Below are positions 24,765-37,040 of a DNA stretch of 64,000 nt, one piece after another. A model generated the notes under the pieces. It saw nothing but the letters and a program-made list of their open reading frames with translations. It did not search any database and was not told the DNA's origin. A program made the translations under genes and the position numbers. Location: the NCBI GenBank assembly GCA_963749495.1, contig CAVVMW010000004.1, positions 576,001-640,000 on the forward strand. The letters run 5' to 3'. Within the stretch, counting starts at the first letter, position 1. Every line of letters begins with the position of its first letter. The stretch comes from an uncultured bacterium. Lineage in GTDB: Bacteria; Verrucomicrobiota; Verrucomicrobiia; Limisphaerales; UBA8199.

Positions 24765-24777
24765 ACGCGATTTGTTT

Positions 24778-25437
24778 TTACCTCATAATGATGGGCAGCG
24801 CCAGCCCTGACGCCCGCTTCCCCAGTGACCCAGTGGATCTTTGCACTGCCTTGTCATTCTTCACGAACAGATCCCACTCGGGAATGCCGCGCATGTTGCG
24901 GATCAACGCTGTGACCGGCATCTCCTTCGGAGCGCGGGGCGTGGTGAGCAGCTTGAGGCCCGCTTCGTGCGGCAGGCGGTTGCCCTTGCGGGCGTTCACG
25001 TCCCTGCTCGACCACACGAGGTTTTCCCACGTGTGTTTGCCGCCACGCGAACGCGGCAGAACATGGTCGAGGCTGCCTTCGTCGGGGCGCAACGCGCGGC
25101 CGGTGTATTGGCAGCGGTTGCCGTCGCGCTCGCGGATTGTGCGGGCGCAGAGCTTCGGGCGCTTCTTCGGCACCTTGGCGAAGTTCACGGCCACAATGAC
25201 CGCCGGCACGCGGATCGGGCCGCGCACGGTCCGCACCGCGTTATCCTGCGGACGGATCGGCAGCGTGATCCACTCGTCCCACGCCACGGGGCGGATGTGG
25301 TTCTCACCTCCGATCTCCAGGCCGGTCGCAACATTCGTTGCCATTTGGCAAAACGCTTCCTGGGGCGTGCGAATGTTGATTGCCTGCCAGTTGCGGTTCA
25401 GCACCAGCACAATCGACTTGTTCAGTATGTCGTTCAT
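24778..25437 (-). CDS. HNH endonuclease (McrA-like) at the 3' end of the tRNA array
   Basis: VLVLNRNWQAI, RDGNRCQY, LDHVLPRSRGG..WENLV....N..KG. Confidence 0.92.
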   Translation of the reverse strand: MNDILNKSIVLVLNRNWQAINIRTPQEAFCQMATNVATGLEIGGENHIRPVAWDEWITLPIRPQDNAVRTVRGPIRVPAVIVAVNFAKVPKKRPKLCARTIRERDGNRCQYTGRALRPDEGSLDHVLPRSRGGKHTWENLVWSSRDVNARKGNRLPHEAGLKLLTTPRAPKEMPVTALIRNMRGIPEWDLFVKNDKAVQRSTGSLGKRASGLALPIIMR

Positions 25438-25511
25438 AAAACGTTTCCACGCGGCCAGATCGCTTCTCGCGCTGAGGTGTTTGTTCTTTGTCGGGGCGTG
25501 TGCCCGGAAAT

Positions 25512-25586
25512 TGGCTGCCTCGCCTGGTTTTGCTCCAAGTCCTCCGGTTTCAGGGACCGGCGCGCTCCTGATTACGCCACGAGGCC
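25512..25586 (-). tRNA. tRNA-Gln(CTG); 5' end hit by hairpin element
   Basis: Hand-folded cloverleaf, loop CC-CTG-AA, encoded CCA. Confidence 0.8.
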
Positions 25587-25655
25587 CGCCGTCGCGCTTT
25601 GTGCTATGGCGCGCCAAGCAATTGGCCCGCCGAGCCGTAGCCGGCAGGCGAAGGC

Positions 25656-25729
25656 TGGTCGCCCGGGGAGGTTCTGCCCCTCCGATTTCTGGGTGTAGGC
25701 CAGACGTGATCCTATTTCACCACCGAGCG
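25656..25729 (-). tRNA. tRNA-Val(TAC)
   Basis: TCTGG-CCTACAC-CCAGA anticodon arm. Confidence 0.85.
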
Positions 25730-25734
25730 TTTCG

Positions 25735-25834
25735 AATGCGGAACTCGGAATGCGGGGTGTGGGGTGCCAAACGAGAACGAAGGTCGCTCGTGCGCGCGCC
25801 CCCATTCCGCACTCTGCATTCCGCACTCCGCACT
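25735..25834. repeat. Inverted heptamer-repeat hairpin (GAATGCG/CGCATTC type)
   Basis: aatgcggaactcggaatgcgg ... cattccgcactctgcattccgcact. Confidence 0.6.
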
Positions 25835-25839
25835 GGGAA

Positions 25840-25913
25840 TGGCTGCCTCGCTTGGATTCGCACCAAGACCGTCGGGGTCAAAGCCCGGCATGCTGCTGTT
25901 ACACCACGAGGCA
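25840..25913 (-). tRNA. tRNA-Gln(TTG)
   Basis: Loop CT-TTG-AC; U1-A72; CCA. Confidence 0.88.
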
Positions 25914-25953
25914 ATGGGTTGGCCTGCCAAGCCGTAGCCCGGAGGGCGAAGGC

Positions 25954-26030
25954 TGGTGGAGCCGGAGGTAGTTGCAACCTCACCAAACCGGATTAAAAGG
26001 CCGGTGCCGGTCTTCTGTGGCTTCGGCTCC
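25954..26030 (-). tRNA. tRNA-Lys(TTT)
   Basis: Loop CT-TTT-AA. Confidence 0.8.
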
Positions 26031-26037
26031 TTGAAAT

Positions 26038-26113
26038 TGGTGCTCGCGGCAGGATTTGCACCTGCACTGGCGACGCTCTCGACGTCGTGTCTCTTCTGTT
26101 GGACTACGCGAGC
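26038..26113 (-). tRNA. tRNA-Leu(GAG), short variable loop
   Basis: CGACG-TCGAGAG-CGTCG. Confidence 0.85.
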
Positions 26114-26121
26114 ATTGGAAA

Positions 26122-26193
26122 TGGAGCCTCCAGCCGGTGCTGCCCCGGCACGATTTTCTTACAAAGAAGATCCACAGGCTGCTGCCTGGAGGC
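26122..26193 (-). tRNA. tRNA-Thr(TGT), degenerate D arm
   Basis: Loop TT-TGT-AA; acceptor GCCTCCA/TGGAGGC. Confidence 0.7.
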
Positions 26194-26231
26194 GAAATGG
26201 CCTGCCGAGCCGTAGCGCTCGGCGCGAAGGC

Positions 26232-26303
26232 TGGTCGCAGTCCCCAGTGCTGCCCTGGGCACGGCGGGCGTATGAAACCTGCCTGAGCGCTGGCTCGACT
26301 GCG
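26232..26303 (-). tRNA. tRNA-Met(CAT) (or Ile2)
   Basis: Loop TT-CAT-AC; acceptor CGCAGTC/GACTGCG. Confidence 0.7.
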
Positions 26304-26331
26304 GTTCTGGCCGACGGCCACGCGATGAAAA

Positions 26332-26406
26332 TGGAGTCCCCACCCGGAATTGCACCGAGCTACCTCCAATACCAATGGAGCGCATCGCTGAAAATGCTTT
26401 GAGGGC
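26332..26406 (-). tRNA. tRNA-Thr(GGT)
   Basis: CTCCA-TTGGTAT-TGGAG. Confidence 0.8.
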
Positions 26407-26414
26407 CATGAAGC

Positions 26415-26529
26415 TGGTCGGCGCGAGACGACTTGCACCCGCCTTCGCTCAAGCTATGGCGGGGCAGGCGTCCAAGGCTGACTGATTCTGAGTCAGATGG
26501 ATCTGCTGTTCCCCGTCAGCCACGCGCCG
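26415..26529 (-). pseudogene. tRNA-Leu(CAG)-like with a 31-nt hairpin element (26438-26468) in the T arm
   Basis: Removing the insert restores GGACG-TGCAAGT-CGTCT. Confidence 0.7.
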
Positions 26530-26535
26530 AGAAAT

Positions 26536-26613
26536 TGGCGTCCCTGACCGGCTTCGCTCCGGTGATCTCCTGCATGAGAGGCAGGCATGTTGTCTGGACT
26601 ACACCACAGGGAC
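26536..26613 (-). tRNA. tRNA-Glu(CTC)
   Basis: CCTGC-CTCTCAT-GCAGG. Confidence 0.88.
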
Positions 26614-26618
26614 GGAAC

Positions 26619-26699
26619 TGGCGGGAGTGGAGAGTGCTGCCCTCTCTGCTTCTCGCATGTCAAATTCCGACTGGGTCGCGACTGATGAGCTACGCCCCC
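26619..26699 (-). pseudogene. tRNA-Val(GAC)-like pseudogene
   Basis: Acceptor and T arm largely intact, TT-GAC-AT loop, 5' anticodon strand replaced. Confidence 0.55.
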
Positions 26700-26703
26700 G
26701 AAA

Positions 26704-26776
26704 TGGAGCGGGTGAACGGGAATGGCACCTTCGTCTCGGCCTCGGCACAGCCGCATTACTGTTGAACCACCCCCGC
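26704..26776 (-). tRNA. tRNA-Gly(GCC)
   Basis: Loop GT-GCC-GA; U73. Confidence 0.75.
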
Positions 26777-26781
26777 AAAAT

Positions 26782-26857
26782 TGGTGTCCCCAGCCGGACT
26801 TCCACCAGCAACCTGGAGTTTAGGACACTCCCGCTCTGTGCTTTGAGCTATGGGGAC
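26782..26857 (-). tRNA. tRNA-Arg(CCT)
   Basis: GGAGT-GTCCTAA-ACTCC. Confidence 0.88.
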
Positions 26858-26861
26858 AAAA

Positions 26862-26971
26862 GGTCGAACCCCTGGCCGGTCTCTTCCACCGGCTCACACC
26901 CAGCGCTTTCCAAAGTCTCACAGGAAGTGAAAGGGGCTGGGCCGCTCGAGCTACTTCGCGTTCAGGGGTCC
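26862..26971 (-). ncRNA. tRNA-like RNA with 9-bp acceptor stem and expanded anticodon arm
   Basis: GGACCCCTG/CAGGGGTTC; CCCAGC/GCTGGG enclosing about 30 nt; GCCGG/CCGGC T-like arm; no CCA. Confidence 0.55.
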
Positions 26972-27041
26972 AAAATGGCCTGCCAAGCCGTAGCCGACAG
27001 GCGAAGGCGGGCCTGCCATGCCGTAGCCGACAGGCGAAGGC

Positions 27042-27133
27042 GGGTGCGCGCGTCCGGTAACGCTCCGGAACTCGGCACTCATCTAGTGCGATTCCGCTTA
27101 TAAGGCGGACGGTTCTCTTTGAACTACGCGCGC
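27042..27133 (-). tRNA. tRNA with TAT (Ile) anticodon and long variable arm
   Basis: TCCGC-CTTATAA-GCGGA; variable hairpin GCACT/AGTGC; 3' CCC supplied by the repeat. Confidence 0.75.
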
Positions 27134-27134
27134 A

Positions 27135-27222
27135 TGGCGGAATGCCGTGGACTTGCACCACTTGCCCGCAGGCACGCACTCGTTAGCACCGAGGCCCGGC
27201 TCGCTCCTCCGGTTGACATTCC
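27135..27222 (-). tRNA. tRNA-Ser(GCT)
   Basis: Loop GT-GCT-AA; long variable arm; G73. Confidence 0.85.
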
Positions 27223-27260
27223 GAAATGGCCGGCCAAGCCGCAGCTCGGAGAGCGAAGGC

Positions 27261-27335
27261 TGGTGCCCGCGGCAGGACTTGCACCTGCACTGTCGAAGGT
27301 TTGAGCTTCGCGCCTCTGCATTGGGCCACGCGGGC
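27261..27335 (-). tRNA. tRNA-Leu(CAA), short variable loop
   Basis: CGAAG-CTCAAAC-CTTCG. Confidence 0.88.
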
Positions 27336-27342
27336 GGCAGAT

Positions 27343-27417
27343 TGGTGCTCCCGGTCAGATTTGCACTGACACTGAACGGGGTTTAAGCCCGTTGCCTCTG
27401 CGTTGGGCTACGGGAGC
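27343..27417 (-). tRNA. tRNA-Leu(TAA), short variable loop
   Basis: ACGGG-CTTAAAC-CCCGT. Confidence 0.88.
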
Positions 27418-27438
27418 TGCTGGCGCAGGGCCACCAAA

Positions 27439-27514
27439 TGGTGCCGCGTGAAGGATTCGCACCTTCAACCTTCCCGTTCTGAGCGGGACGCCTCTGCTGT
27501 TGGGCTAACGCGGC
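27439..27514 (-). tRNA. tRNA-Leu(CAG), short variable loop
   Basis: TCCCG-CTCAGAA-CGGGA. Confidence 0.88.
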
Positions 27515-27520
27515 GTGAAT

Positions 27521-27566
27521 TGGCACTCCCAGCAGGACTCTCACCTGCATCTCCGACGTTCGAAGC
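27521..27566 (-). pseudogene. 3' half of split tRNA-Arg(TCG)
   Basis: G-CTTCGAA-CGTCG, T arm, TGGGAGT-G-CCA. Confidence 0.8.
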
Positions 27567-27707
27567 TTCAGGGCCTTTTAACGCAGTCGGGCCTCTCGGC
27601 CAACCCACAAATTCTGCTGAGGAGGCGAAAAAAAGGATGTTGACAGCTTTGACAGAGCGTGTTAATACTATATCCGCAGTGGATATATCTGCGAAAGTGA
27701 TAGTGCT

Positions 27708-28093
27708 ATGGCGATGATCGAAACCAACGCAGAAGGGATGCTGCCGCTCACTCCGGCAGTGTTTCATGTGCTGCTGGCCCTGGTCGAGGGCGAGCGGCAC
27801 GGCTATGCCATTATGCAGGAAGTGGCTGAAAGCACCCGGGGCCAGATCCACATGGGGCCCGGCACGCTTTACGGCACAATCAAGCGGCTATTGGCGGCCC
27901 GGTTGATCGAAGAGTCAGACCGGCGCCCCAACCCGAGCTGGATGATGAGCAACGCCGCTACTACCGTCTCACTGGACTTGGCCAGCAAGTGGTAAAGGCA
28001 GAAGCGCATCGCTACGAGCAATTGGCAAAACTTGCCCGCCGGAAAAGGCTACTCGGCCAGACCGCCAGGGTGGGGCATGCGAGGGGACTTTGA
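27708..28093 (+). CDS. PadR family regulator, frameshift near 27930
   Basis: HGYAIMQEV..GPGTLYGTIKRL; RRYYRLT in the other frame; upstream palindrome ATATCC-N5-GGATAT. Confidence 0.8.
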
Positions 28094-28095
28094 CG

Positions 28096-29064
28096 ATGTC
28101 GCAATCCTGCGAACCAAAACCGGTGGCGTTTTCCGGCGAGATTTATGAGCGCCTGCTGGCACTCTACCCGAGGGAGCATCGCCGGGAATATGGACCCGCG
28201 ATGGCGCAACTCTTCCGCAACCAGTGCCGCGATGCCTGGACTGAAGCACGCGGACGGGCATTGGCGCTCCTCTGGCTGCGCACCTCGATTGATTTGGTAA
28301 AAACCTCGATCCTGGAACACCTCCGGGATCTCAAACAAAGGAAAACCATGTTCAACAAATTGGTTTTGGCGGTTCGCAATACTCCGGGTCTGCGGGCCAC
28401 CTTTTTGGCCTTATTCGTACCGGTGTTCGTGCTGGTACTCGGCTTCTACATCCTGGTGGCGTTTCTGGTGCACGGTGAGTATGCGAGCACCGTTAGAATC
28501 AAAGTTCACAAGGCCGCCAGCTATGTTACACCTCCCAGTTATCAGCGATACGTGGTTGGGAACTACGATCCGTATTTTATCCGCAGCCAGTTTAGACTGA
28601 TCCAGTCGGATTCTGTTCTCGGCCGGGTGGCCAAGAAGCTCGACCTGGCCGAGGCTTGGGGGCCGAGATCTCCTGGTGGGGCGCTCAGCGATGACGACAC
28701 GATTGACCTGCTAAAGGAAAAGCTCGCTTTGCGGCCGGTGCGCAACACGGACCTGATTGAGGTCCGCGTCTACAGCAATAGCGCCAGGGAGGCCTCCAAT
28801 ATTGCGAATGTGCTGGCCGAGACTTATCGCAACCTCAGAAGCGAACAGCGGCAGAGTGCAGTGGAAGTGGAAGCGCCGAGAGCGCGGTTGGTGGAAATAG
28901 TGGACACTGCCGTGCCTGGGTCAAGGCCCGTGCGGCCCAATAAGCTGTTCAACGTGTTCTTCGGACTCTTTGGCGGATCCCTCCTGGGTGTGCTTGTTGG
29001 CGGAGTGGGAGCTTTCGTTGTGCTCCTATACCGGCGGCTATCACCGCCGGCTGCAACGGCCTGA
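28096..29064 (+). CDS. PadR-associated membrane protein with chain-length-determinant (Wzz-like) domain
   Basis: LLALYPREHRREYG..M; YDPYFIRSQ..IQS; IVDTAVP..PVRPNK; two TMs. Confidence 0.75.
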   Translation: MSQSCEPKPVAFSGEIYERLLALYPREHRREYGPAMAQLFRNQCRDAWTEARGRALALLWLRTSIDLVKTSILEHLRDLKQRKTMFNKLVLAVRNTPGLRATFLALFVPVFVLVLGFYILVAFLVHGEYASTVRIKVHKAASYVTPPSYQRYVVGNYDPYFIRSQFRLIQSDSVLGRVAKKLDLAEAWGPRSPGGALSDDDTIDLLKEKLALRPVRNTDLIEVRVYSNSAREASNIANVLAETYRNLRSEQRQSAVEVEAPRARLVEIVDTAVPGSRPVRPNKLFNVFFGLFGGSLLGVLVGGVGAFVVLLYRRLSPPAATA

Positions 29065-29239
29065 TCACCCTGAAAACCCAGGGCCGCTGATAGCCAGGGG
29101 GGTAGCTTTCAGCTTGAACTCAGGTCGGTCTGATCGGTTTGTGGAGTTCAGCGGGTTTTATGAGGGAGATCGCGCTCTTTCCATCATCAACCGAGTCTAA
29201 AATCGACTTCCTTCCCCTCGATTACTGAGGCACTCCTCA

Positions 29240-29270
29240 GTCGCGCTCTGATGATTTGAGCTGCGGGAGC
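29240..29270 (-). pseudogene. 5' half of split tRNA-Arg(TCG)
   Basis: GCTCCCG-CA-GCTC..GAGC-G-CGAC pairs with the 3' half at 27521-27566. Confidence 0.8.
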
Positions 29271-29278
29271 ATTGAAAT

Positions 29279-29370
29279 TGGTGGGCCGCCACGGATTCGC
29301 ACCTGGTGGCCGTGCGCAAGCACTTCTCGCCGGGTAAGAGCCGGGACTTCACTGCCAAAGTTTGCAGCCC
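29279..29370 (-). tRNA. tRNA-Lys(CTT)-like with extra hairpin in the variable/T region
   Basis: CCGG-CTCTTAC-CCGG; extra GTGC-TTGC-GCAC. Confidence 0.6.
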
Positions 29371-29374
29371 AAGC

Positions 29375-29447
29375 GCGACACGAAGGCGGAGTTGAACCGC
29401 CGCAGCCAGGTCTGTGGAGCCTGGCCGGCACCGGGATTTCGCGTCGC
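29375..29447 (-). ncRNA. tRNA mimic with 10-bp terminal stem and canonical T loop
   Basis: GCGACGCGAA/TTCGTGTCGC; GGCGG-TTCAACT-CCGCC; 9-nt anticodon-like loop; no CCA. Confidence 0.6.
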
Positions 29448-29453
29448 ATGAAA

Positions 29454-29555
29454 TGGAATCCCAAGCGCGCTGAATCTGGCGCCAGGCACGGTGGCCGTGC
29501 GGCAGCACCTTCGACCGTGCCGGGGTCTCTGGCGGCAGGCCAGATTCGCTTGGGA
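29454..29555 (-). ncRNA. Long-hairpin RNA ending in CCA
   Basis: TCCCAAGCG-AATCTGGC ... GCCAGATT..CGCTTGGGA-TTCCA. Confidence 0.5.
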
Positions 29556-29557
29556 AA

Positions 29558-29648
29558 TGGACGGGCATGAGAGTAGCGCGCCCTCTATTCCGGTTTGGAA
29601 GGTCCTTGCGGACGGCCATCAGCGTGTATCTCTCAACACTTATGCCCG
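29558..29648 (-). tRNA. tRNA-Gly(TCC)-like with about 16-nt insert in the anticodon arm
   Basis: CGGGCAT/ATGCCCG-T-CCA; GTCC-GCAA-GGAC before CT-TCC-AA. Confidence 0.6.
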
Positions 29649-29688
29649 ATGAAATGGCCCGCCATGCCGTAGCCCAGCGGGCGAAGGC

Positions 29689-29763
29689 TGGAGTCCCGTG
29701 CGGGAGTCGCACCCGCCTGTGTGGTTTTGCAGACCACTGCCTCGGCTGCTCGGCCAACGGGAC
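29689..29763 (-). tRNA. tRNA-Cys(GCA)
   Basis: GTGGT-CTGCAAA-ACCAC; U73. Confidence 0.9.
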
Positions 29764-29817
29764 ATGCTTCGAGATCGAAGCGCGGGCGGATGGTTGTGTC
29801 GCCCGCCCGCGGGGCGA

Positions 29818-30615
29818 TTAATTCTCGGCAGGCGGATCCGGTGGTGCGTTCGGCTTGCCATTTTTGAACGGCAGGAAGCCGCCGGGCATGCCGAGCACCA
29901 GCGTGTTGCCGGCGTGCTGTGCAGCCGAAAGCGACTGCATCAGACGCAGGTTCATCAGCGCCGGGTTGCCTTCCAACACGCGGGCCGCGTTGGCGAGATT
30001 GCGCAACGAGGCGCTTTCACCCCGGGCGCGTTCGAGTGCGGCCTGGCCTTCCTGCTTTGCCTTCAGCACATCGGCGAACGCACGCTTCAGCTCGGCCGGG
30101 AACATCACATCCTTCACTTCGACAGCGAGAACGTTGATGCCGATCTTCGCGGAGTCCCGCTGCACGCGCGCCAGCAGTTGCGCTCCGAGTTCGAGCCGCT
30201 CATTGAGCAGCGCTTCGACGGCGACTCTGTTTACGACCGCGCGCAATGCGAGCTGGGCGCTGTTGTATAGGTCGCACTGCCAGTTCTGCGTTTCGTGCGC
30301 AGCCTTGGCCGGGTCGGCCATCTGGTAGATGACGAGCAGGCTCATCTTCAGGCCGACGTTGTCAGCAGTGAGGACTTCCTGTCCCGCCACGAGCAGCGCG
30401 CCCTTGCGCAGGTCCTGTGCGCCCAGTGTGAAGTGCCGGCCCCAGCGAATGTGTCGGCCGGCCACGAGGACTTCGACGAACCTGCCCTTGTGATAGAGCA
30501 GGCCGGCGCAGCCTTCCGGCACGAGGAAGGCGTAACGAAATTCCCTCGCGACGGCGGCAACAATGACGCCGCCGAGAATGGCCATGAGGATTACGATGAG
30601 AATGTTGTAGTTCAT
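29818..30615 (-). CDS. SPFH/Band-7 (slipin-like) protein
   Basis: GQEVLTADNV, QLALRAVV, KDVMFP, ARGESASLRNLANAARVLEGNPALMNLR. Confidence 0.92.
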   Translation of the reverse strand: MNYNILIVILMAILGGVIVAAVAREFRYAFLVPEGCAGLLYHKGRFVEVLVAGRHIRWGRHFTLGAQDLRKGALLVAGQEVLTADNVGLKMSLLVIYQMADPAKAAHETQNWQCDLYNSAQLALRAVVNRVAVEALLNERLELGAQLLARVQRDSAKIGINVLAVEVKDVMFPAELKRAFADVLKAKQEGQAALERARGESASLRNLANAARVLEGNPALMNLRLMQSLSAAQHAGNTLVLGMPGGFLPFKNGKPNAPPDPPAEN

Positions 30616-30646
30616 GTCTATTCTCCTTTCTGGTTCCGAATTGAAA

Positions 30647-30752
30647 GCCCGGAGCAGGAGACCACCATCCAGCGGCGGAAGAATCGCGCAGAGGCAATTC
30701 TCGCAAAGCCGCCTTCGAGCTGCGCTCTCGCGCTGGTCTCACTGCTCCGAGC
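30647..30752 (-). ncRNA. Long multi-stem hairpin upstream of the SPFH gene
   Basis: GCTCGGAGCAG-TGAGACCA ... TGGTCTC-CTGCTCCGGGC. Confidence 0.45.
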
Positions 30753-30794
30753 CGTGGCGGGATTCCTCCCGTGTCCAACCAATGGAGTTGGTTT

Positions 30795-30879
30795 TCAGCC
30801 AACGTGCGGATTCGAACCGCGATGGATCAGCCCATTCGCAGGACCATTCCAGCGAATTGCTGGATGGCTGCTGGCTTGA
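30795..30879 (-). ncRNA. tRNA mimic with canonical TTCGAAT T loop
   Basis: AGCCAGC/GTTGGCT stem; GCGG-TTCGAAT-CCGC; no anticodon arm or CCA. Confidence 0.55.
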
Positions 30880-30892
30880 TCCAAATCGAAAA

Positions 30893-30967
30893 TGGGGTGA
30901 CCAACCGGACTCGCACCGGCACAAACGCCTTCACGGGGCGTGATGCTGCTGTTACATCATGATCACC
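30893..30967 (-). tRNA. tRNA-His(GTG)
   Basis: ACGCC-CCGTGAA-GGCGT; G-1/C73. Confidence 0.9.
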
Positions 30968-30973
30968 ATAAAA

Positions 30974-31208
30974 TGGCCTGCCGAACCGTAGCCAGGCAGG
31001 CGAAGGCTGGCCTGCCGTGCCGTAGCCGACAGGCGAAGGCTGGCCTGCCGTGCCGTAGCCGACAGGCGAAGGCTGGCCTGCCGTGCCGTAGCCGACAGGC
31101 GAAGGCTGGCCTGCCGTGCCGTAGCCGACAGGCGAAGGCTGGCCTGCCGTGCCGTAGCCGACAGGCGAAGGCTGGCCTGCCGTGCCGTAGCCGACAGGCG
31201 AAGGCTGG
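30974..31208. repeat. Seven tandem copies of a 33-bp hairpin element
   Basis: tggcctgccgtgccgtagccgacaggcgaaggc x6 plus one 34-bp variant; no spacers. Confidence 0.95.
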
Positions 31209-31281
31209 AGCCCCTGGTCGGACTCGCACCGACGAATACGAGTTTACGAAACTCGCCCTGTTGCTGCTGAGGCACAGGGGC
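31206..31281 (-). tRNA. tRNA-Thr(CGT)
   Basis: CGAGT-TTCGTAA-ACTCG. Confidence 0.85.
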
Positions 31282-31285
31282 AAAA

Positions 31286-31363
31286 TGGCGTCCGCGGCAG
31301 GAATCGCACCTGCGACCTCCACCTTCGCACAGTGGCGCTCTGATCTAACTGAGCTACGCGGAC
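31286..31363 (-). tRNA. tRNA-Arg(GCG)
   Basis: CCACT-GTGCGAA-GGTGG; A20. Confidence 0.85.
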
Positions 31364-31366
31364 AAA

Positions 31367-31444
31367 TGGCATCCGTGGTCGGACTTGCACCGACTACGCC
31401 CGGCTTGAAGGGCCGGCTGCTCGAGCTGCTTTGCATTCACGGAC
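31367..31444 (-). tRNA. tRNA-Glu(TTC)
   Basis: CCGGC-CCTTCAA-GCCGG. Confidence 0.85.
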
Positions 31445-31543
31445 GAAAAGCGTTCGCCGCAAAGGATGAGCACGCAGAGTCGCTGCTCTCCGGCAGGCGT
31501 TAACTCCGCGGGCTCAGTTCCTCCGTGGCGATATGAGGACGCG

Positions 31544-32674
31544 TCAGCGGTGAAACTTGCGCGTCTTGTAAGTGAGGAGTGGTCGCAATGTCGCGATGAC
31601 GGAGACAAGCCCGGCATCCACGAGGTCCTGGATCACTGCCTCGATGTTTTTGTAGGCGCCAGGCGCCTCTTCGTAGAGCAGGTCGCGCTCTTCGCAAACC
31701 ACCCGGCTCCCCAGCGGCGTCTGCACCAACTGATGCAGGCCGAAACGCTCGCGCATGCGCAAGCGGGCTGCGCTCCGAGCCCATTTGCGGCCGGCCCCGT
31801 GAGCGAGCGACCAGGCGCGGCTTTCGCCATCGCCGATTGGCTTCACGAGGTAGCTCAAAGCCCCGCGCGATCCGGAGATAACCACCGGGTCATCCTCGCC
31901 AACGACAGCGCCTTTGCGATGCACCCAGACAGTTTCACCGGCGCTTTCGTGACGGGTGATGCTGTTGTGGCAACCGTCCCAAAGGCACTCTGTCTCGGCC
32001 CCGAGCGCCGCGACAAAGCGACGGGCGATGACTTCGCGGTTGGCTTTGGCCCAGCGCATGGCGAAGTCGTGACCGCGGAGGTATTCCCCCGCCGCGAACG
32101 AGTCCGCCTCCACGCCGTTCGCGAAGTGTTGGTCCGCATGCTGGCGGAGGACGGATTCGCCCAATCCGCGCGAGCCGCTGTGAACCAGCACCACGAGTTG
32201 CTGCTTGCCCAACCCGAATTTCTTGAATTCGTCAGGGTCGAGGACTTTTTCGACCGCCTGCAACTCGGCGAAGTGATTTCCCCCGCCGATCGTGCCCAAC
32301 GCCGAATCAAATTCCGTGGAATCGAGCCGTCGTTCAGCGAGGAAGTCGCTGACGGATTCCGCCCACGGGTGTTCGAGGTCGAAGCGCAGCGTGGCCCATC
32401 GGTCGAGCTTGGCATCGCGACGCACAAGGTCGGTGGCGAACAACGCCATGCCGCAGCCGATGTCCCCGCCAATGACGTGCGGGTAAATCTCACCCTCGGT
32501 TACGAACGCGGCGCCGACTGGGGTGCCTTTGCCGGGATGCAAATCCGGGAAGCCCACTGCACGGCGGACACCAGCAAGCTTCGTGGTGGCGTAGAGTTGG
32601 CGCACCGCTTCGCCTTCGATCCAGCTTTGGGCCGAGGCGAAAAGGCGCACCTGAATTTCGGTCAGGGTGGTCAT
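31544..32674 (-). CDS. rtcB: RNA ligase RtcB family, short release-factor-H-coupled (RtcB2) type
   Basis: WIEGEA, PDLHPGKG, GGDIGCGM, GTIGGGNHFAE, HSGSRG, HRKGA, HGAGRK, EEAP.AYK. Confidence 0.93.
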   Translation of the reverse strand: MTTLTEIQVRLFASAQSWIEGEAVRQLYATTKLAGVRRAVGFPDLHPGKGTPVGAAFVTEGEIYPHVIGGDIGCGMALFATDLVRRDAKLDRWATLRFDLEHPWAESVSDFLAERRLDSTEFDSALGTIGGGNHFAELQAVEKVLDPDEFKKFGLGKQQLVVLVHSGSRGLGESVLRQHADQHFANGVEADSFAAGEYLRGHDFAMRWAKANREVIARRFVAALGAETECLWDGCHNSITRHESAGETVWVHRKGAVVGEDDPVVISGSRGALSYLVKPIGDGESRAWSLAHGAGRKWARSAARLRMRERFGLHQLVQTPLGSRVVCEERDLLYEEAPGAYKNIEAVIQDLVDAGLVSVIATLRPLLTYKTRKFHR

Positions 32675-32722
32675 GTTTCCTTTCGTGCCCGCAAAGCGGG
32701 ACCTTTTGAGTCATGAGTTAAG

Positions 32723-32800
32723 AATGCAGAGTGCAGAATGCGGAAGAGACTGCCGCCGTAATTAAACGGATTCTGCATTCTGCACTCCGCACTCTGCATT
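32723..32800. repeat. Inverted heptamer-repeat hairpin
   Basis: aatgcagagtgcagaatgcgga ... ttctgcattctgcactccgcactctgcatt. Confidence 0.65.
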
Positions 32801-32804
32801 TAAA

Positions 32805-32879
32805 TGGTCCCCGAGGTTGGTATCGCGCCAACGTCTCCTCCTCTTCAGGGAGGCGCTAAGCTGCCTCAGCTACTCGGAG
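32805..32879 (-). tRNA. tRNA-Phe(GAA)
   Basis: CCTCC-CTGAAGA-GGAGG. Confidence 0.85.
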
Positions 32880-32882
32880 GAA

Positions 32883-32979
32883 TGGCCTGCCGAGCCGTAG
32901 CCGCAGGCGAAGGCTGGCCTGCCACGCCGTAGCTTTAGCGAAGGCTGGCCTGCCACGCCGTAGCTTTAGCGAAGGCTGG
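32883..32979. repeat. Three tandem copies of the hairpin element
   Basis: tggcctgcc..gccgtagc..gcgaaggc x3. Confidence 0.9.
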
Positions 32980-33050
32980 TCGTCCCGGCAGGTAATGCTC
33001 CTGCGTCGCCCGGTTATCGACCGGGTGCTCTGCTCTTGAGCTACAGGACG
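32977..33050 (-). tRNA. tRNA-Ile(GAT)
   Basis: CCCGG-TCGATAA-CCGGG. Confidence 0.88.
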
Positions 33051-33051
33051 A

Positions 33052-33140
33052 TGGCGGAAGGCGTCGGTAACGCTCCGACCTCGGCAATGCCGATCCTGTT
33101 TTCGGGACAGGTGCAGCCAGCTTATATCTGCCTGCCTTCC
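33052..33140 (-). tRNA. tRNA-Ser(CGA)
   Basis: CCTGT-CCCGAAA-ACAGG; long variable arm. Confidence 0.85.
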
Positions 33141-33146
33141 ATAAAA

Positions 33147-33226
33147 TGTCAGGGTGGCAAGGTTCACCCCCGCGGCCTCCTGGTTCCGAACTCCCGACGC
33201 GTGGCGACTGCTGGCATTACACCCTG
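33147..33226 (-). pseudogene. tRNA-Pro(CGG)-like pseudogene
   Basis: CAGGGTG/CACCCTG acceptor; TT-CGG-AA; 5' anticodon strand replaced. Confidence 0.55.
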
Positions 33227-33230
33227 AAAT

Positions 33231-33305
33231 TGGCTGCCAGGGTTGGACTCGCACCAACACCGTGCGGTTTAACAAACCGTCGTGCTACTTTGACACCACC
33301 TGGCA
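33231..33305 (-). tRNA. tRNA-Asn(GTT)
   Basis: Loop TT-GTT-AA; G73. Confidence 0.85.
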
Positions 33306-33306
33306 A

Positions 33307-33382
33307 TGGCACTGCCGGCAGGACTTCCACCTGCATCGTTCCGCTTAGAAGGCGGGTGCCTCATGTGTTCGGCCACGGCAGC
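33307..33382 (-). tRNA. tRNA-Arg(TCT)
   Basis: Loop CT-TCT-AA. Confidence 0.85.
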
Positions 33383-33390
33383 ATTCGAAA

Positions 33391-33466
33391 TGGTCAGCGC
33401 GACAGGAGTTGCACCTGCGATCCCTCGGTCCCAGGCCGAGTGCGTTGGCTGCTACGCTACGCGCTG
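33391..33466 (-). tRNA. tRNA-Pro(TGG)
   Basis: CTCGG-CCTGGGA-CCGAG; C1-G72. Confidence 0.88.
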
Positions 33467-33468
33467 AT

Positions 33469-33544
33469 TGGCGGACCCGAAGGGAATTGCACCCTCAACC
33501 CTCCCGCAGACAACGGGGCGCTCTGCTTCTTGAGCTACGAGTCC
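33469..33544 (-). tRNA. tRNA-Asp(GTC)
   Basis: Loop TT-GTC-TG; G73. Confidence 0.85.
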
Positions 33545-33551
33545 GAAATGG

Positions 33552-33649
33552 CCTGCCGAGCCGTAGCCGCAGACCTAAACGGGAGCCCGCCTTCGCTAAG
33601 GCTACGGCAGGCACCCTTCGCCATCCGACACGCGGACGGCGAAGGCCGG
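33552..33649. repeat. Composite hairpin element with nested inverted copy
   Basis: cctgccgagccgtagcc ... cccgccttcgctaaggctacggc ... gcgaaggccgg. Confidence 0.75.
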
Positions 33650-33736
33650 TGGGAAGTGCTGGTAACGCTCCAGCTCGTCGCTTCCAGCTTCGTTTAACGA
33701 CACCCGATTTACAGTCGGGCAGCCGGATCACTTCCC
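33647..33736 (-). tRNA. tRNA-Tyr(GTA), D-arm-less with extended variable arm
   Basis: CCCGA-CTGTAAA-TCGGG; only 10 nt between acceptor and anticodon stems. Confidence 0.7.
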
Positions 33737-33743
33737 AGAGATC

Positions 33744-33816
33744 TGGTAGCGGGGGTGGGAGTTGCGCCCACGGAGGCTGAGCTTATGAGGCTCGCCTGAA
33801 TCTCATTCTCCCCGCA
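33744..33816 (-). tRNA. tRNA-Met(CAT), initiator-like (1:72 mismatch)
   Basis: GAGC-CTCATAA-GCTC; TGCGGGG/CCCCGCT. Confidence 0.75.
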
Positions 33817-33825
33817 ATGAATTGG

Positions 33826-33926
33826 CCTGCCAAGCCCTAGCCCGGCGGAGCCAAAGCCAGAGCCCACCTTCGCTAAAGCGACGGTGGGCAGCCTCCGCCC
33901 GCCGCGGTGCAGCGGGCGAAGGCTGG
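33826..33926. repeat. Composite hairpin element with nested inverted copy
   Basis: cctgccaagccctagcccg ... cccaccttcgctaaagcgacggt ... cgggcgaaggctgg. Confidence 0.7.
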
Positions 33927-33999
33927 TGGAGGACGGCGGGTAACGCTCCCGCTTATGCCTGCTTGCAGGGCAGGCGCATCACTTTTCTGCCACGCCCCC
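33924..33999 (-). tRNA. tRNA-Ala(TGC)
   Basis: CCTGC-CCTGCAA-GCAGG; G3:U70; one extra acceptor nt. Confidence 0.8.
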
Positions 34000-34014
34000 A
34001 GAAATCGAGAAGAT

Positions 34015-34088
34015 TGGCAAGTCGCCCTGGTGCTGCCCCAGGCAAGCTGAGTTTTGGAGACCCGGCTGCACAAGCTGGTGCGCGACTT
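34015..34088 (-). tRNA. tRNA-Trp(CCA)
   Basis: Loop CT-CCA-AA; G73. Confidence 0.78.
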
Positions 34089-34151
34089 TTTTTGCATTGT
34101 ATTTTCGGAACGCAGGCGACGTGAGAATCGAAAGCGCATTCCGAACGAAGT

Positions 34152-34225
34152 TGGTGCGGCCGCCGGGAATTGCACCCGGACTTCCTCCGTGGGGGGGAGG
34201 CATTCTGCTGTTAGATCACAACCGC
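34152..34225 (-). tRNA. tRNA-Gly(CCC)
   Basis: CCTCC-CCCCCAC-GGAGG. Confidence 0.8.
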
Positions 34226-34567
34226 GGAAATTGAGAGGGCCGGGAGCGTTGCTGCTCCCGGCCCATGCCATTTCAACAAAGAACAAACACCTCTTGCTAT
34301 CTTGCGATACCAACCCACGGTTTCACGGTGGTTCTTTCGGTGTTTTGGGGCACACCTCCTGCGAAGCCCTCAGATTGTAAAATCCGGCTTAACTCACTCG
34401 GCGCGCTTTTTGGCGACCTGTGGGCAAAGCCCACCGGTGGAGAACCTCGGCTCTCCCGCGCCTTCTTGTGTTTTGTGCCAGGCGACATCATCAAGAACGT
34501 CCGTATGCTTCTTCTCACAGTGCTTTGCCTTTCGTTGTCAAGTTCACTTTCTCAGTCGTGCAGGAAC

Positions 34568-34585
34568 AATAAAAAACCCTGCTTC
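34568..34585 (-). terminator. Half of an intrinsic terminator split by the IS (other arm 37041-37063)
   Basis: Empty site reads AACCCTGCTT-ACCGTAACGG-AAGCAGGGTT-TTTTATT on the minus strand. Confidence 0.75.
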
Positions 34586-37040
34586 CAGAACTCCTGACAT
34601 AGCCGTCAAACAAAATGTCCGCTTTTTGCCTCACGGCGCTTCCCGAATTGTGTAGCGCAGGCGCAAGCGCGAACCTGGAAAGAGGGTATTGGTCCGGTTG
34701 AGTTCCTCGCAAAGCGCGGCAATCGCCCGCGTGCGGTGCGGCGAACTTAGCGCAGCCAAGCTCACCCGCAACTCCGTTTGGGTGACTTCGAGATCCGCCG
34801 CGCTGGCCAAAGCCGATTGGATCAGAGTTCGACCTTCGTCGCCCACCCTCCGATAGTAGGGCGCGACTAATCTCAGCAAATCGCTCTCGGCTTGGTAAGC
34901 CACGATCTTAATCACATTGGTTAGATGTTTGCGTTCTGGAGCCAGTTTCACCACGGGCTCTTTGGTGATGCTTTGGATCGGCACTCGCCGGGGCACGGCG
35001 GCACGGCGTTTCTCCAGTCGCGCTACACGCTGCCAAGCAGTGTCGATTTGCTGGCCGAGCTTGCCCTGCGCGATCTTGAAGCCGCGCATGGTCTGCTGCT
35101 GCTGCTCCAGGTTGACCAGCGCCTCCAGGCCATATTCGGCCTGCAGCCGAGCCAGTTGGGCATACGCCTGGCGCAATTGGGCGTCCACGGCCGCCCAGAC
35201 CGGGTTGGGAACCTCACGAGTGGGATCATCAGGCACCGCGGCATATTCGACTAACGCGTCCAACGCGTATTCGTCGCACAGGTATTTCAGGAAATTCTCT
35301 TGTCGCCAGCGATCAAACATGTGATAGGCGACTTGGGCAGCGCACAGATCCCGGCGCGAGGTCAGGACGGGGGTTTGGTGCCCGTTGTCCCTCAGGCGGG
35401 TGACCTGCCGCATGCGCAGCTTGCCCTTGAGCAAGCGCACCTCCTGGTCGGCCAGGACGTAGAGGAAGGTCCGTCCCTCACAACGGGTGCGACATGGCCG
35501 GAAGCGCTTGCGGGGGACGCGGCGGCAGCGCCCTTTGCGGTACGTCAGCACGTCAAAGCCCGCGGCCAGGATTTGGAGGAAGAGCTTGGGACTGTAGCCG
35601 CCGCGATCAAAGGCTACGGTGATGCGTCGTTTGCCCACCAAGCTGCGCACCTGCTCCAGGATGCCGGGCAGCATCTTGACCAAGCCGGCGTTAGCCTGTG
35701 CCGTGACGACAAAGAGCGGATCGCCGCACGTGTCGTTGACCCAATAGTCCGAAGTGGCCGGCACCGAGAGGCGCATCTGAGCCACGTGGGCCTTGGGCAG
35801 ACGGTGCTTGCCGTGGTAAACCCGCACGTGGCCATCCACGTAGAGGAAACCCAAGGCGGCTCCGCGCAAGGCGACCCGTTGCTGGGCCAGAGCCAGGCCA
35901 AACTGCGCGGCGCGTCCGGTGGCCGCCAGGCAGGCCAGTTTCCGCCGCAGCGTTTTGACTTCGGGCGCCCGGTCCAAGCCCAGCACACGCCCCAAGTCTT
36001 GAGGGGAGTGTTCCTTGAGGCCCTCCGGTCGCTTGATGCGCCACAGCGCCATGAGCAAGAGTGTGAGCAAGCTGGTGCGCAATCCATAGAAGGCTGGCCC
36101 CAGGCTGCCGTAGATCCTCTGAGCACAGTCGAAAACGCCGCTGGCCACCAACGCCGGCAAGGCCAAGAGCACGCCGACGCACGGCACGGCGGCGGCGCAC
36201 CCGAACAACGGGGCTGCATCTTCCAGCAATCCCAGGCGTGCCAGCAACCGATCGGTCCAGCGATGAGCCGGGTCGGTGTCGAGGCTGCGCGGCAGTGGGC
36301 TCGGCGCCACGGATGCACAAAAAGCGGACAGTTTTGGGTTCCCCCCAGATGCGGGTGAATGAGTCGATGAAGGGGTCTCCACGGGGGGCTGGTTCGCAGC
36401 GGTGGTCGTCCGCGGCTCAAGAGGCAGTTCGGTCTGAACGACCATCCGTGCGGGCTTCCAGCCTAAACGTCGCACGGTTTTGCGGACGGCTTGCACACTG
36501 ACCCCAAGCCGCCGCGCGATCTCGTAGTGCGAGCGGCCTTGGGCCTTGAGCCGTTGGACCCAGCCTCGCCGAGAGGCCGCCAGGCGGGCACGCCCCTGCG
36601 GATAACCGCGGGGGCGTCCCAGTGCAGCCAAGCCGCCCCCCTCGAAGCGTTGTTGACAGCGCCGCACCGTGCGGACCGAGTAACCAAAGGCTCTGGCCAC
36701 GTCGTTCTGATCCGCCCAACCTACATTGATCAGGCTCACCATGGCGTGGGCTTCGGACATGCGGTCGCCCACCGCATACTGTGCCAGGGGCATTCCTGAC
36801 ACGAGCACAAGGCGGTGACCTTCCTGCGTCAGCAGCAGGCATCGCTCGTTGATGACATGGGTGCCTTGTGGGTTTCGCGCCTCTGGAAAGAGGTCGTCGC
36901 ATAGGGTATTGGCCATACGCGCCGATGTTAGCCCGGCGGTCAAAAAAGCGGACAGTTTTGGGTTCCCCCCCCCGCCAGTATTGTCCGCCCAGAAAATGCC
37001 CAGAAATGGCGAAAACTATGAGGCTATGTCAGGAGTTCTG
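34586..37040 (-). mobile_element. Insertion sequence (unclassified DDE type), 19-bp perfect IRs, 5-bp TSD GCTTC
   Basis: CAGAACTCCTGACATAGCC / GGCTATGTCAGGAGTTCTG; GCTTC at 34581 and 37041. Confidence 0.92.
34631..36943 (-). CDS. Putative transposase (two HTH + DDE-like region)
   Basis: YVDGHVRVY, AFDRGGYS, RWRQEN; bounded by IRs. Confidence 0.85.
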   Translation of the reverse strand: MTAGLTSARMANTLCDDLFPEARNPQGTHVINERCLLLTQEGHRLVLVSGMPLAQYAVGDRMSEAHAMVSLINVGWADQNDVARAFGYSVRTVRRCQQRFEGGGLAALGRPRGYPQGRARLAASRRGWVQRLKAQGRSHYEIARRLGVSVQAVRKTVRRLGWKPARMVVQTELPLEPRTTTAANQPPVETPSSTHSPASGGNPKLSAFCASVAPSPLPRSLDTDPAHRWTDRLLARLGLLEDAAPLFGCAAAVPCVGVLLALPALVASGVFDCAQRIYGSLGPAFYGLRTSLLTLLLMALWRIKRPEGLKEHSPQDLGRVLGLDRAPEVKTLRRKLACLAATGRAAQFGLALAQQRVALRGAALGFLYVDGHVRVYHGKHRLPKAHVAQMRLSVPATSDYWVNDTCGDPLFVVTAQANAGLVKMLPGILEQVRSLVGKRRITVAFDRGGYSPKLFLQILAAGFDVLTYRKGRCRRVPRKRFRPCRTRCEGRTFLYVLADQEVRLLKGKLRMRQVTRLRDNGHQTPVLTSRRDLCAAQVAYHMFDRWRQENFLKYLCDEYALDALVEYAAVPDDPTREVPNPVWAAVDAQLRQAYAQLARLQAEYGLEALVNLEQQQQTMRGFKIAQGKLGQQIDTAWQRVARLEKRRAAVPRRVPIQSITKEPVVKLAPERKHLTNVIKIVAYQAESDLLRLVAPYYRRVGDEGRTLIQSALASAADLEVTQTELRVSLAALSSPHRTRAIAALCEELNRTNTLFPGSRLRLRYTIREAP

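Follow-up and report, generated by a model that had tools for sequence, protein, structure and literature searches.

An L-array of tRNA genes with a rewired elbow, in which G55 and mostly AG stand in place of U55 and GG, in an uncultured Verrucomicrobiota bacterium

L-arrays are a known kind of long, horizontally mobile transfer RNA (tRNA) operon, recognised by 20–43 tandem co-oriented tRNA genes, by a supernumerary gene set, by a neighbouring HNH endonuclease gene together with a link to rtcB, and by a patchy distribution among genomes. In the type case, the trn operon on plasmid delta of Anabaena/Nostoc sp. PCC 7120, 23 of 26 operonic tRNAs are aminoacylated in vivo, rtcB is co-regulated and the operon is induced by translational stress, according to the available parts of PMC8421152. 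The locus described here, at 25512–34225 on the minus strand of a 64,000-nucleotide stretch of contig CAVVMW010000004.1 from an uncultured Verrucomicrobiota bacterium (assembly GCA_963749495.1; the whole stretch is hereafter called the window), is an L-array: it comprises 39 tandem co-oriented units, it is supernumerary to 50 canonical tRNAs elsewhere in the genome that cover the isotypes, it is accompanied by an HNH gene (24778–25437) and an RtcB gene (31544–32674), and its distribution is patchy, with such arrays in about 10 of 401 genomes of the phylum, in metagenome-assembled genomes (MAGs) of other phyla and in viral contigs, the array of the window being flanked by transposases. To our knowledge, the contact between G18 and pseudouridine 55 is regarded as near-universal in tRNA. 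In this contact, G18 lies intercalated between bases 57 and 58, where it bonds to pseudouridine 55, and the outer face of the elbow is made up of the G19–C56 pair (accessible part of PMC7912444). A rewired elbow, with G55 for U55 and mostly AG for GG in the D loop, is confirmed for the array tRNAs, far beyond chance.

Elbow positions of the array tRNAs

The 39 tRNA or tRNA-like units, most of which carry an encoded CCA, form one tRNA operon, and their number was obtained with a covariance model (R1) built with a hand-set cloverleaf on an alignment (A1) of 62 clean array tRNAs from the source genome. An unfiltered R1 search of 24000–36000 gave 43 matches at E ≤ 1, with 40 on the minus strand and 24 above 50 bits; the minus-strand match at 33549–33610 is a spacer hairpin and not a tRNA, therefore 39 units remain, the same number that had been folded by hand in a preliminary description of this DNA. 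ARAGORN called 18 tRNAs in the array, and the Rfam tRNA model gave 16 matches at the gathering score over the whole window and, when 25000–35000 was searched by E-value, 20 matches that exceeded the gathering score of 29 bits, indicating that genes of this kind are under-called by tRNA finders, and by modification maps, that are geared to GTTC (18 and 20 of the 39 units for ARAGORN and Rfam, respectively). All 20 amino acids are represented by the anticodons of the array, Trp and Tyr being supported by weak matches.

In the standard register, positions 54–56 of the T loop read N-G-N in 36 of the 39 units (TGC in 18, AGC in 7, GGC in 5, CGC in 3, TGG in 2 and TGA in 1), and two further N-G-N units were read by hand, namely 26704–26776 with TGCCATT and 26415–26529 with TGCAAGT, the latter after a 31-nucleotide hairpin insertion. 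No TTC T loop was observed in any of the 39 units, and the T arm of unit 29415–29487 is truncated. The preliminary description had stated that all 39 T loops read N-G-N and never TTC, of which the absence of TTC stands and the count holds for all units except the one with the truncated T arm; its GGT class of T loops was not found among the 39 units.

The source assembly (11.4 Mb in 31 contigs, 88% complete and 5.8% contaminated) contains six arrays, that of the window and five alike, on contigs C4, C5, C7, C15, C21 and C25. The gene order of the C21 and C25 arrays mirrors the two halves of the array in the window, and some of the six may reflect strain variation or splits in the assembly instead of true paralogy, given the contamination and completeness of the assembly. 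As a genome-wide control, 126 ARAGORN calls were filtered for a CCA end, a T stem of at least 4 base pairs and an acceptor stem of at least 6 base pairs, which 102 calls passed; G55 was observed in 51 of the 52 filtered tRNAs within arrays, and U55 (TTC) in 50 of the 50 elsewhere. The GG dinucleotide of the D loop is likewise present in all 50 housekeeping tRNAs versus 8 of 51 array tRNAs, most of the eight reading AGGCAG, AGG or similar, so that the AG-like D loops proposed earlier were recovered, with GG missing from 43 of 51. A base other than U stands at position 54 in 10 of 51 array tRNAs, and the pattern GGTGCRANTCC-N11-CCA has 53 matches in the source genome and none in the reversed control. 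The remaining marks of the cloverleaf are largely kept in the array tRNAs, such as U8 (49 of 51), A14 (46 of 51), U33 (45 of 51), R37 (49 of 51) and G53–C61 (47 of 51).

The sole combination of a TTCGAAT T loop with a GG D loop in any of the six arrays was observed in an initiator-like tRNA-Met of the C7 array (locus L002, 9095–9187 on the plus strand, corresponding to G000 C7:33095–33187), which has a C1–A72 mismatch and a 19-nucleotide variable region. Its canonical elbow hints that initiation may need an ordinary elbow.

Relatives of the RtcB of the window, at 70–85% identity, were found in MAGs labelled Verrucomicrobiae or Limisphaerales, Limnocylindrales and Alphaproteobacteria; at seven such loci RtcB lies amid same-strand tRNAs, and G55 is present in 123 of the 126 tRNAs of these RtcB-linked arrays from seven other genomes. 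Neither of the two outcomes that the preliminary description had named as contrary to its reading was therefore observed, position 55 being nearly uniform across homologous arrays in these counts and U55 being kept in all 50 housekeeping tRNAs of the host. Among the 401 sampled genomes of the phylum, clusters of 3–31 matches to the pattern GGTGCRANTCC-N11-CCA occur in about nine besides the source genome, and the rest hold 0–3 scattered matches. In the half of a viral contig collection that was scanned, 133 stretches matched a two-T-arm pattern; in 13 of these loci R1 finds 297 tRNAs, of which the best 150 were taken and 132 have a sound T stem, with 117 G55, 14 U55 and 1 C55, a G55 share that is biased because the loci were picked for holding the pattern. 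In BLAST searches with four array tRNAs as queries, plasmids and phages yielded nothing beyond short matches to ordinary tRNAs.

The relation between positions 18 and 55 was followed in a pool of 308 unique array tRNAs from the source genome, seven other genomes, the 13 viral loci and Anabaena, the share of the last being 10 of its 23 operon matches in A3, namely those passing the parser. U55 is accompanied by a GG dinucleotide in the 18–19 zone in 25 of 25 cases, while G55 is accompanied by GG in 16 of 281, nearly all of them AGG, and by AG in 225; in mixed viral arrays both elbow types are adjacent yet still coupled, with GG in 14 of 14 U55 tRNAs. For positions 19 and 56, which were compared among 163 G55 tRNAs, the D loop has AG in 123 of the 136 tRNAs with C56, AC in 8 of the 11 with G56 and AT in 11 of the 14 with A56, the remaining three G56 tRNAs having AT, a possible U–G pair. 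Arg(TCT) passes through all three states across arrays (AG/C56, AC/G56 and AT/A56). The compensatory 19–56 pairs suspected in the preliminary description are borne out by these counts, in which base 56 covaries with the D-loop base as a Watson–Crick pair across arrays, and so are its individual cases in the window, namely G56 with C19 in Arg(TCT) (33307–33382, T loop TGGAAGT, D loop AACACATG) and Arg(CCT) (26782–26857, T loop TGGAAGT, D loop AAAGCACA), and A56 in the split Arg(TCG), with U19 as its possible partner. The Fisher values of the couplings (3e-26, 2e-16, 1e-6 and 9e-8) are overstated, the relatives being non-independent and the D-loop register being inferred. As judged from these alignments, positions 18/55 and 19/56 are coupled, and the direction of the result is clear.

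A T loop of this type has precedents outside tRNA. In flavin mononucleotide (FMN) and cobalamin riboswitches, the T loops follow the consensus (YGNRA)NY, with UGNRA in 88.7% and CGNRA in 10.9%, adenosine is nearly without exception the base that intercalates between positions 4 and 5 of the loop, and a ribosomal RNA (rRNA) T-loop type GGAAG is also named (available text of 10.1101/2022.12.26.521914). The consensus is followed by the 96 of 163 G55 tRNAs that have T-A-T at positions 54, 58 and 60, with C54 and A58 in a further 15, and it is not followed by the AGCGTTA class (24 of 163) and the GGCAG class (10 of 163). Compared loop by loop, TGCRANT of the array matches the riboswitch T loops and CGCGATA does so partly, A stands where tRNA has G18, and GGCAG resembles the GGAAG of rRNA, whereas the AGCGTTA class (A54, U58) is without a counterpart among the riboswitch and rRNA T-loop types in the portion of that paper at hand. 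The riboswitch T loops are tertiary contacts outside tRNA, while intercalation of A18 in the array tRNAs is read from sequence alone. A switch of the array tRNAs to a T loop of the type N-G-N-R-A, mostly UGCRA, with A18 as the probable partner and with the 19–56 face kept, is well supported by these comparisons.

Selection, isotype identity and possible roles

Stem changes were compared between arrays for tRNAs with the same anticodon, in a set pre-filtered for the cloverleaf, which inflates the pairing figures: two-sided changes keep the pair 1232 times versus 30, one-sided changes keep pairing 329 times versus 114, and 3319 of 3423 stem cells (97%) are paired. The compensatory stem changes indicate selection and not decay, and the couplings hold across arrays, in line with the earlier claim that coordinated change across isotypes reflects selection. 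Judged on stems alone, 19 of 39 array tRNAs have a best housekeeping match of their own isotype (shuffle mean 4.2, maximum 11), therefore the array tRNAs descend from separate isotype lineages, and a single G55 founder with anticodon switching is ruled out by this test. At the discriminator position, 47 of 50 array tRNAs have the base found in the host tRNA of their isotype; G-1 and C73 are both retained in tRNA-His. The array Gly tRNAs (34152–34225 on the minus strand of the window, G000 C7:34699 and C25:67571) have A73 versus U73 in the three housekeeping Gly tRNAs, and they are among the three differences in 50. Neither a synthetase or tRNA-modifying enzyme nor a Fem-like protein was found among 14 open reading frames (ORFs) scanned in and beside the array, which include HNH, DUF7380, PadR, Wzz-like, SPFH, RtcB and the transposases. 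The matching discriminators, together with G-1 and C73, argue for charging by host synthetases and against an orthogonal set.

RNA contigs at least 95% alike over tRNA blocks were found in four of four environmental RNA-library runs from four studies, with summed depths of up to about 100, and they give a hint of array transcription. Many of these contigs are single tRNAs or skip spacers and therefore come from related arrays; cover of the PadR/Wzz insertion is almost absent and RtcB is covered in one run of the four, gaps in cover not being proof of silence. The sequencing runs that share words with the window do so in small shares only (0.05–0.17), therefore no habitat is named.

These observations are probably best accounted for by a mobile L-array with a lineage of rewired-elbow tRNAs, serving as a spare tRNA pool alongside RtcB repair. 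The array RNAs would fold to the normal L shape, host synthetases would charge them, and the array would work as a spare pool with RtcB repair upon damage to host tRNAs or translational stress. The weakest step is the reason for G55, which would pay by removing TruB targets, and TrmA targets too where position 54 is not U, leaving an elbow that is independent of the modification enzymes of the recipient and on which enzymes or toxins that recognise or cleave U54–U55 could act only poorly. G55 cannot become pseudouridine and hence is no TruB substrate; the source genome encodes TruB, and position 54 is not U in about one-fifth of the array tRNAs, which therefore have no m5U54. A T-loop-cutting tRNase is on record (accessible part of PMC9086364), and a kit for damage response or anti-defence would agree with the RtcB link and the presence in viral contigs. 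A more specific version, put forward tentatively, is that G55 and A18 mark a mobile "shadow" pool insulated from TruB, TrmA and T-loop-cutting toxins or nucleases, which together with RtcB and the leader of the array would form a module carried between phyla; if true, such a module would let phages and mobile elements sustain translation while host tRNAs are destroyed. Its bolder form, in which canonical elbows would be the target of a nuclease encoded by the array and the G55 tRNAs would be replacements immune to it, is much less likely. The earlier suggestion that elbow readers and T-boxes may not see these tRNAs is open to doubt, since the 19–56 pair, the flat outer face on which such readers stack, is kept by covariation.

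Several points weigh against the spare-pool explanation. On this explanation G55 array tRNAs would be charged and would decode; the Anabaena charging data do not transfer, because the tRNAs there are canonical in 23 of 24, and the best-known bacterial G55 tRNAs, the TGC/TGT tRNA-Gly of staphylococci, are the non-proteogenic ones (PMC7826273, in part). About 6 of the 39 units are damaged, interrupted or have an unclear anticodon, namely the split Arg(TCG), the hairpin-bearing Leu-like unit, the insertion-bearing Gly(TCC)-like unit, two degenerate units and one without a clear anticodon arm, and C33 occurs in 6 of 51 array tRNAs. By bacterial rules, body and anticodon are mismatched in four Leu tRNAs without a long arm and in the TAT and CTT units with a long variable-region hairpin (27042–27134, 29279–29369, 27261–27514 and 26038–26113 on the minus strand of the window; 1054–1590 of locus L087), and a second long-arm TAT unit is present in the C7 array. 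The counts rest on a purpose-made cloverleaf parser, on structurally filtered tRNAs and on matches of a G55-trained model, the kinship of the sequences makes the Fisher values too strong, and the D-loop register of positions 18 and 19 was set without alignment to a solved structure. Strand and level cannot be told from the RNA contigs, DNA may be present in such libraries, and the cover of tRNAs may reflect their better conservation compared with protein genes. In favour of decoding stand the G55-bearing precedent of tRNA-Pyl (PMC1851642, as far as its available text goes) and the complete isotype-faithful set of the array.

Among the other explanations, a functionally neutral elbow variant, an equally good closure of early origin in a phage or mobile-array lineage and kept by descent and by exchange between neighbouring genes, is rather unlikely. 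It would suit the fact that UGNRA with an adenosine works in other RNAs (10.1101/2022.12.26.521914, in the part available), and also the coexistence of both designs in one operon, with 5 G55 and 5 U55 in viral locus L150 and 1 G55 among 24 in Anabaena; but many isotype lineages with separate bodies are nearly fixed for G55, across arrays whose stems have diverged strongly, and G55 occurs in 0 of 50 housekeeping tRNAs, whereas leakage to the chromosome and reversion above the observed 3 of 126 would be expected of a neutral state. Non-decoding array RNAs, which would act as nuclease decoys or aminoacyl donors that G55 keeps off the ribosome or EF-Tu, are quite unlikely. The genes of the non-proteogenic staphylococcal tRNA-Gly do have TGC/TGT in place of TTC (excerpt of PMC7826273), a sponge role for operonic tRNAs is raised in the L-array paper (PMC8421152, in its accessible portion), and some units have odd bodies, such as the type-I Leu tRNAs, the long-arm TAT and CTT units and the C33 tRNAs; against this, the anticodons span all 20 amino acids, 45 of 51 anticodon loops have U33 and 49 of 51 a purine at position 37, the identity marks match those of the host, the 19–56 face used by the ribosome is retained, and a complete isotype-faithful set would be needless for a decoy.

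The orthogonal tRNA class put forward in the preliminary description, as a translation set with charging or modification enzymes of its own, is very improbable: the elbow is indeed uniformly unlike that of the host, but no synthetase or tRNA-modifying enzyme is linked among the 14 scanned ORFs and the discriminators are host-like in 47 of 50. Decay into tRNA pseudogenes, with the T-loop changes as damage, is close to untenable, since the roughly 6 of 39 degenerate or interrupted units on which it could draw are set against the same G55 in 36 of 39 units and two more by hand, the 97% of paired stem cells, compensation of 1232 to 30, kept CCA ends and a design conserved between phyla. The spare tRNA pool with a rewired elbow is preferred over these four accounts.

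Layout of the array and neighbouring elements

The array (25512–34225, minus strand, as are all features below unless stated) is interrupted by the RtcB gene, by an SPFH gene and by one opposite-strand insertion. Its first segment, from the head to RtcB, contains Gly(CCC) with T loop TGCAATT (34152–34225); a tRNA-like Trp(CCA) with GGCAGCA and a reduced D arm (34015–34088, a weak match of 18.2 bits); Ala(TGC) with AGCGTTA and one additional base in the acceptor 3' strand (33924–33999); a CAT-anticodon tRNA with CGCAACT and a U1–U72 mismatch (33744–33816); Tyr(GTA) with a long variable arm, AGCGTTA and a 3' end CCG (33647–33736, a weak match of 10.7 bits); Asp(GTC) with TGCAATT (33469–33544); Pro(TGG) with TGCAACT (33391–33466); Arg(TCT), described above; Asn(GTT) with TGCGAGT (33231–33305); Ser(CGA) with a long variable arm and AGCGTTA (33052–33140); Ile(GAT) with AGCATTA (32977–33050); and Phe(GAA) with CGCGATA (32805–32879). 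The RtcB RNA ligase gene that follows within the array (31544–32674) encodes 376 amino acids, and RtcB copies were observed at four of the six arrays of the source assembly, plus one stand-alone copy. Between RtcB and the SPFH/Band 7 protein gene (29818–30615), which also lies within the array, are located Glu(TTC) with TGCAAGT (31367–31444), Arg(GCG) with TGCGATT and D loop AGTTAGATCA (31286–31363), Thr(CGT) with TGCGAGT (31206–31281) and His(GTG) with the encoded G-1, C73 and TGCGAGT (30893–30966).

Beyond the SPFH gene, Cys(GCA) with TGCGACT (29689–29763) is followed by the Gly(TCC)-like unit with an insertion at the anticodon region and T loop CGCGCTA (29558–29648), the degenerate unit with the truncated T arm, of which the acceptor stem and CCA are good (29415–29487), and the CTT-anticodon-loop unit with a variable-region hairpin, T loop TGCGAAT and an irregular T stem (29279–29369). 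Arg(TCG) is cut in the anticodon stem into two halves 1.66 kb apart: the 5' half (29270–29244) comprises the acceptor strand and D arm with D loop AAATCATCA, and the 3' half (27584–27521) has the anticodon loop CTTCGAA and T loop TGAGAGT (A56). The insertion that splits it (approximate bounds 27650–29100, plus strand) encodes on the other strand a PadR regulator (27708–27995) and a Wzz/GNVR-like membrane protein (28090–29064).

The last segment contains three Leu tRNAs without a long variable arm, namely Leu(CAG) with TGCGAAT (27439–27514), Leu(TAA) with TGCAAAT (27343–27417) and Leu(CAA) with TGCAAGT (27261–27335); Ser(GCT) with a long variable arm and TGCAAGT (27135–27222); the TAT-anticodon tRNA with a 23-nucleotide variable arm, AGCGTTA and a 3' end CCC (27042–27134); Arg(CCT), described above; the degenerate unit with TGCCATT, a bulged T stem and a 9-nucleotide anticodon loop (26704–26776); the tRNA-like unit with an unclear anticodon arm and GGCAGCA (26619–26699); Glu(CTC) with AGCGAAG (26536–26613); the Leu(CAG)-like unit of 115 nucleotides (26415–26529), in which a 31-nucleotide spacer-type hairpin stands between the 5' strand of the T stem and the T loop; Thr(GGT) with TGCAATT (26332–26406); a CAT-anticodon tRNA with GGCAGCA and a CAGC tetraloop in the D arm (26232–26303); Thr(TGT) with GGCAGCA and a reduced D arm (26122–26193); Leu(GAG), again without a long variable arm, with TGCAAAT (26038–26113); Lys(TTT) with TGCAACT (25954–26030); Gln(TTG) with TGCGAAT (25840–25913); Val(TAC) with GGCAGAA (25656–25729); and Gln(CTG) with AGCAAAA (25512–25586). 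The HNH endonuclease gene (24778–25437) lies directly 3' of this last tRNA and is itself followed by a DUF7380 gene, and transposases are located upstream of the array, one of them (Transposase_29, 34631–36943) directly upstream of the leader. Sub-threshold Rfam matches in the array (Plastid-ycf2, Tymo tRNA-like and tRNA-Sec) fall on tRNAs and were set aside as chance or tRNA likeness.

The leader at the head of the array (34226–34400), about 150 nucleotides long, has a TACAAT box and a predicted three-helix fold, in which a AGGAGGTG stretch lies within a GGGC/GCCC helix, an AAACACC/GGTGTTT helix and two inner hairpins are predicted, and a terminator-like hairpin follows. It is 82–97% identical at the heads of all six arrays and in eight other genomes (L001–L012, L014), including loci L009 and L011, where RtcB alone follows; compensatory change was observed in 5 of the 23 predicted pairs, and its 79-nucleotide core is identical in RNA contigs of the four studies. 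No Rfam family matches the leader, and a leader peptide was rejected as a candidate, the short ORF after AGGAGGTG being not conserved and having a stop in several copies. The leader may be the regulatory RNA of the array–RtcB module.

Two kinds of repeats were also observed in the array. Hairpin units of 33 (or 31) nucleotides begin directly after the CCA of a tRNA, end in GGCC-A and occur in up to 7.1 tandem copies, as at 30974–31208, with further sites at 26977–27044, 32883–32979 and 25624–25655 (minus strand); within the window they are confined to the array (9 pattern matches, 0 expected), the hairpin in the Leu(CAG)-like unit at 26415–26529 resembles them, and they may act as signals for processing or termination, or represent small mobile hairpins. 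Direct repeats resembling GCAGAGTGCGGA, with inverted copies, are located at 25740–25835, between Gln(TTG) and Val(TAC), and at 32700–32800, on the 5' side of RtcB (minus strand), and similar GCAGAA-rich runs lie 3' of the leader in L006, L008 and L010; these repeats could be protein-binding repeats or terminators.

Comparison with known tRNA systems

No description of A18/G55 tRNA arrays was found in the full-text literature, subscription papers and preprint supplements being beyond its reach. The text of the L-array study PMC8421152 contains none of the terms T-loop, G18, U55, elbow, tertiary and pseudouridine, the T-loop review PMC7912444 mentions neither G55 nor A18, the tRNA-array survey PMC4758250 has a single, irrelevant "loop", and the G55 of 10.1101/2024.12.08.627333 is a base pair of raiA and not a tRNA position. 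The rewired elbow is thus apparently an unpublished variant of the L-array. A complete isotype-faithful set with an alternative contact, spread across phyla and viral contigs, indicates that there are no fewer than two natural ways to build the tRNA elbow; tRNAs deliberately unlike those of the host at a site read by enzymes and toxins may travel on mobile elements, the variant could provide a natural scaffold for tRNAs needing neither TruB nor TrmA, and the role of pseudouridine 55 becomes testable through natural swaps.

Among single tRNAs, the non-proteogenic tRNA-Gly of Staphylococcus shares with the array tRNAs TGC/TGT in place of TTC and the absence of pseudouridine 55, but it is one isotype used for the cell wall and has dihydrouridine at position 19, whereas the array covers 20 isotypes with A18–G19 conserved and 19–56 covarying (PMC7826273, in the part available). 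The decoding tRNA-Pyl likewise lacks G18G19 and T54-Psi55-C56, and its Desulfitobacterium form has G55 and A56; it has a D loop of 5 nucleotides, an anticodon stem comprising 6 base pairs, a variable loop of 3 nucleotides and one base between acceptor and D stems, whereas the array tRNAs have standard dimensions (excerpt of PMC1851642). Among operons, the tRNA array units of mycobacteria and their phages or plasmids are likewise dense and mobile, and an abstract of 2026 describes them as a putative antidefence system (accessible parts of PMC5966550 and PMC12803027).

The closest system is the trn operon of plasmid delta, which shares with the array of the window dozens of co-oriented supernumerary tRNAs, an adjoining HNH gene and the rtcB link; both are patchy among genomes and both contain Leu tRNAs without a long variable arm. 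The two differ at the elbow, as 23 of 24 ARAGORN tRNAs of the Anabaena array have the canonical GTTC with a GG D loop and only Glu(CTC) reads TGCAACT, whereas the array of the window has no TTC. G55 as a general trait of L-arrays is ruled out by the Anabaena array, and the array of the window therefore represents a sublineage of L-arrays with a different elbow.

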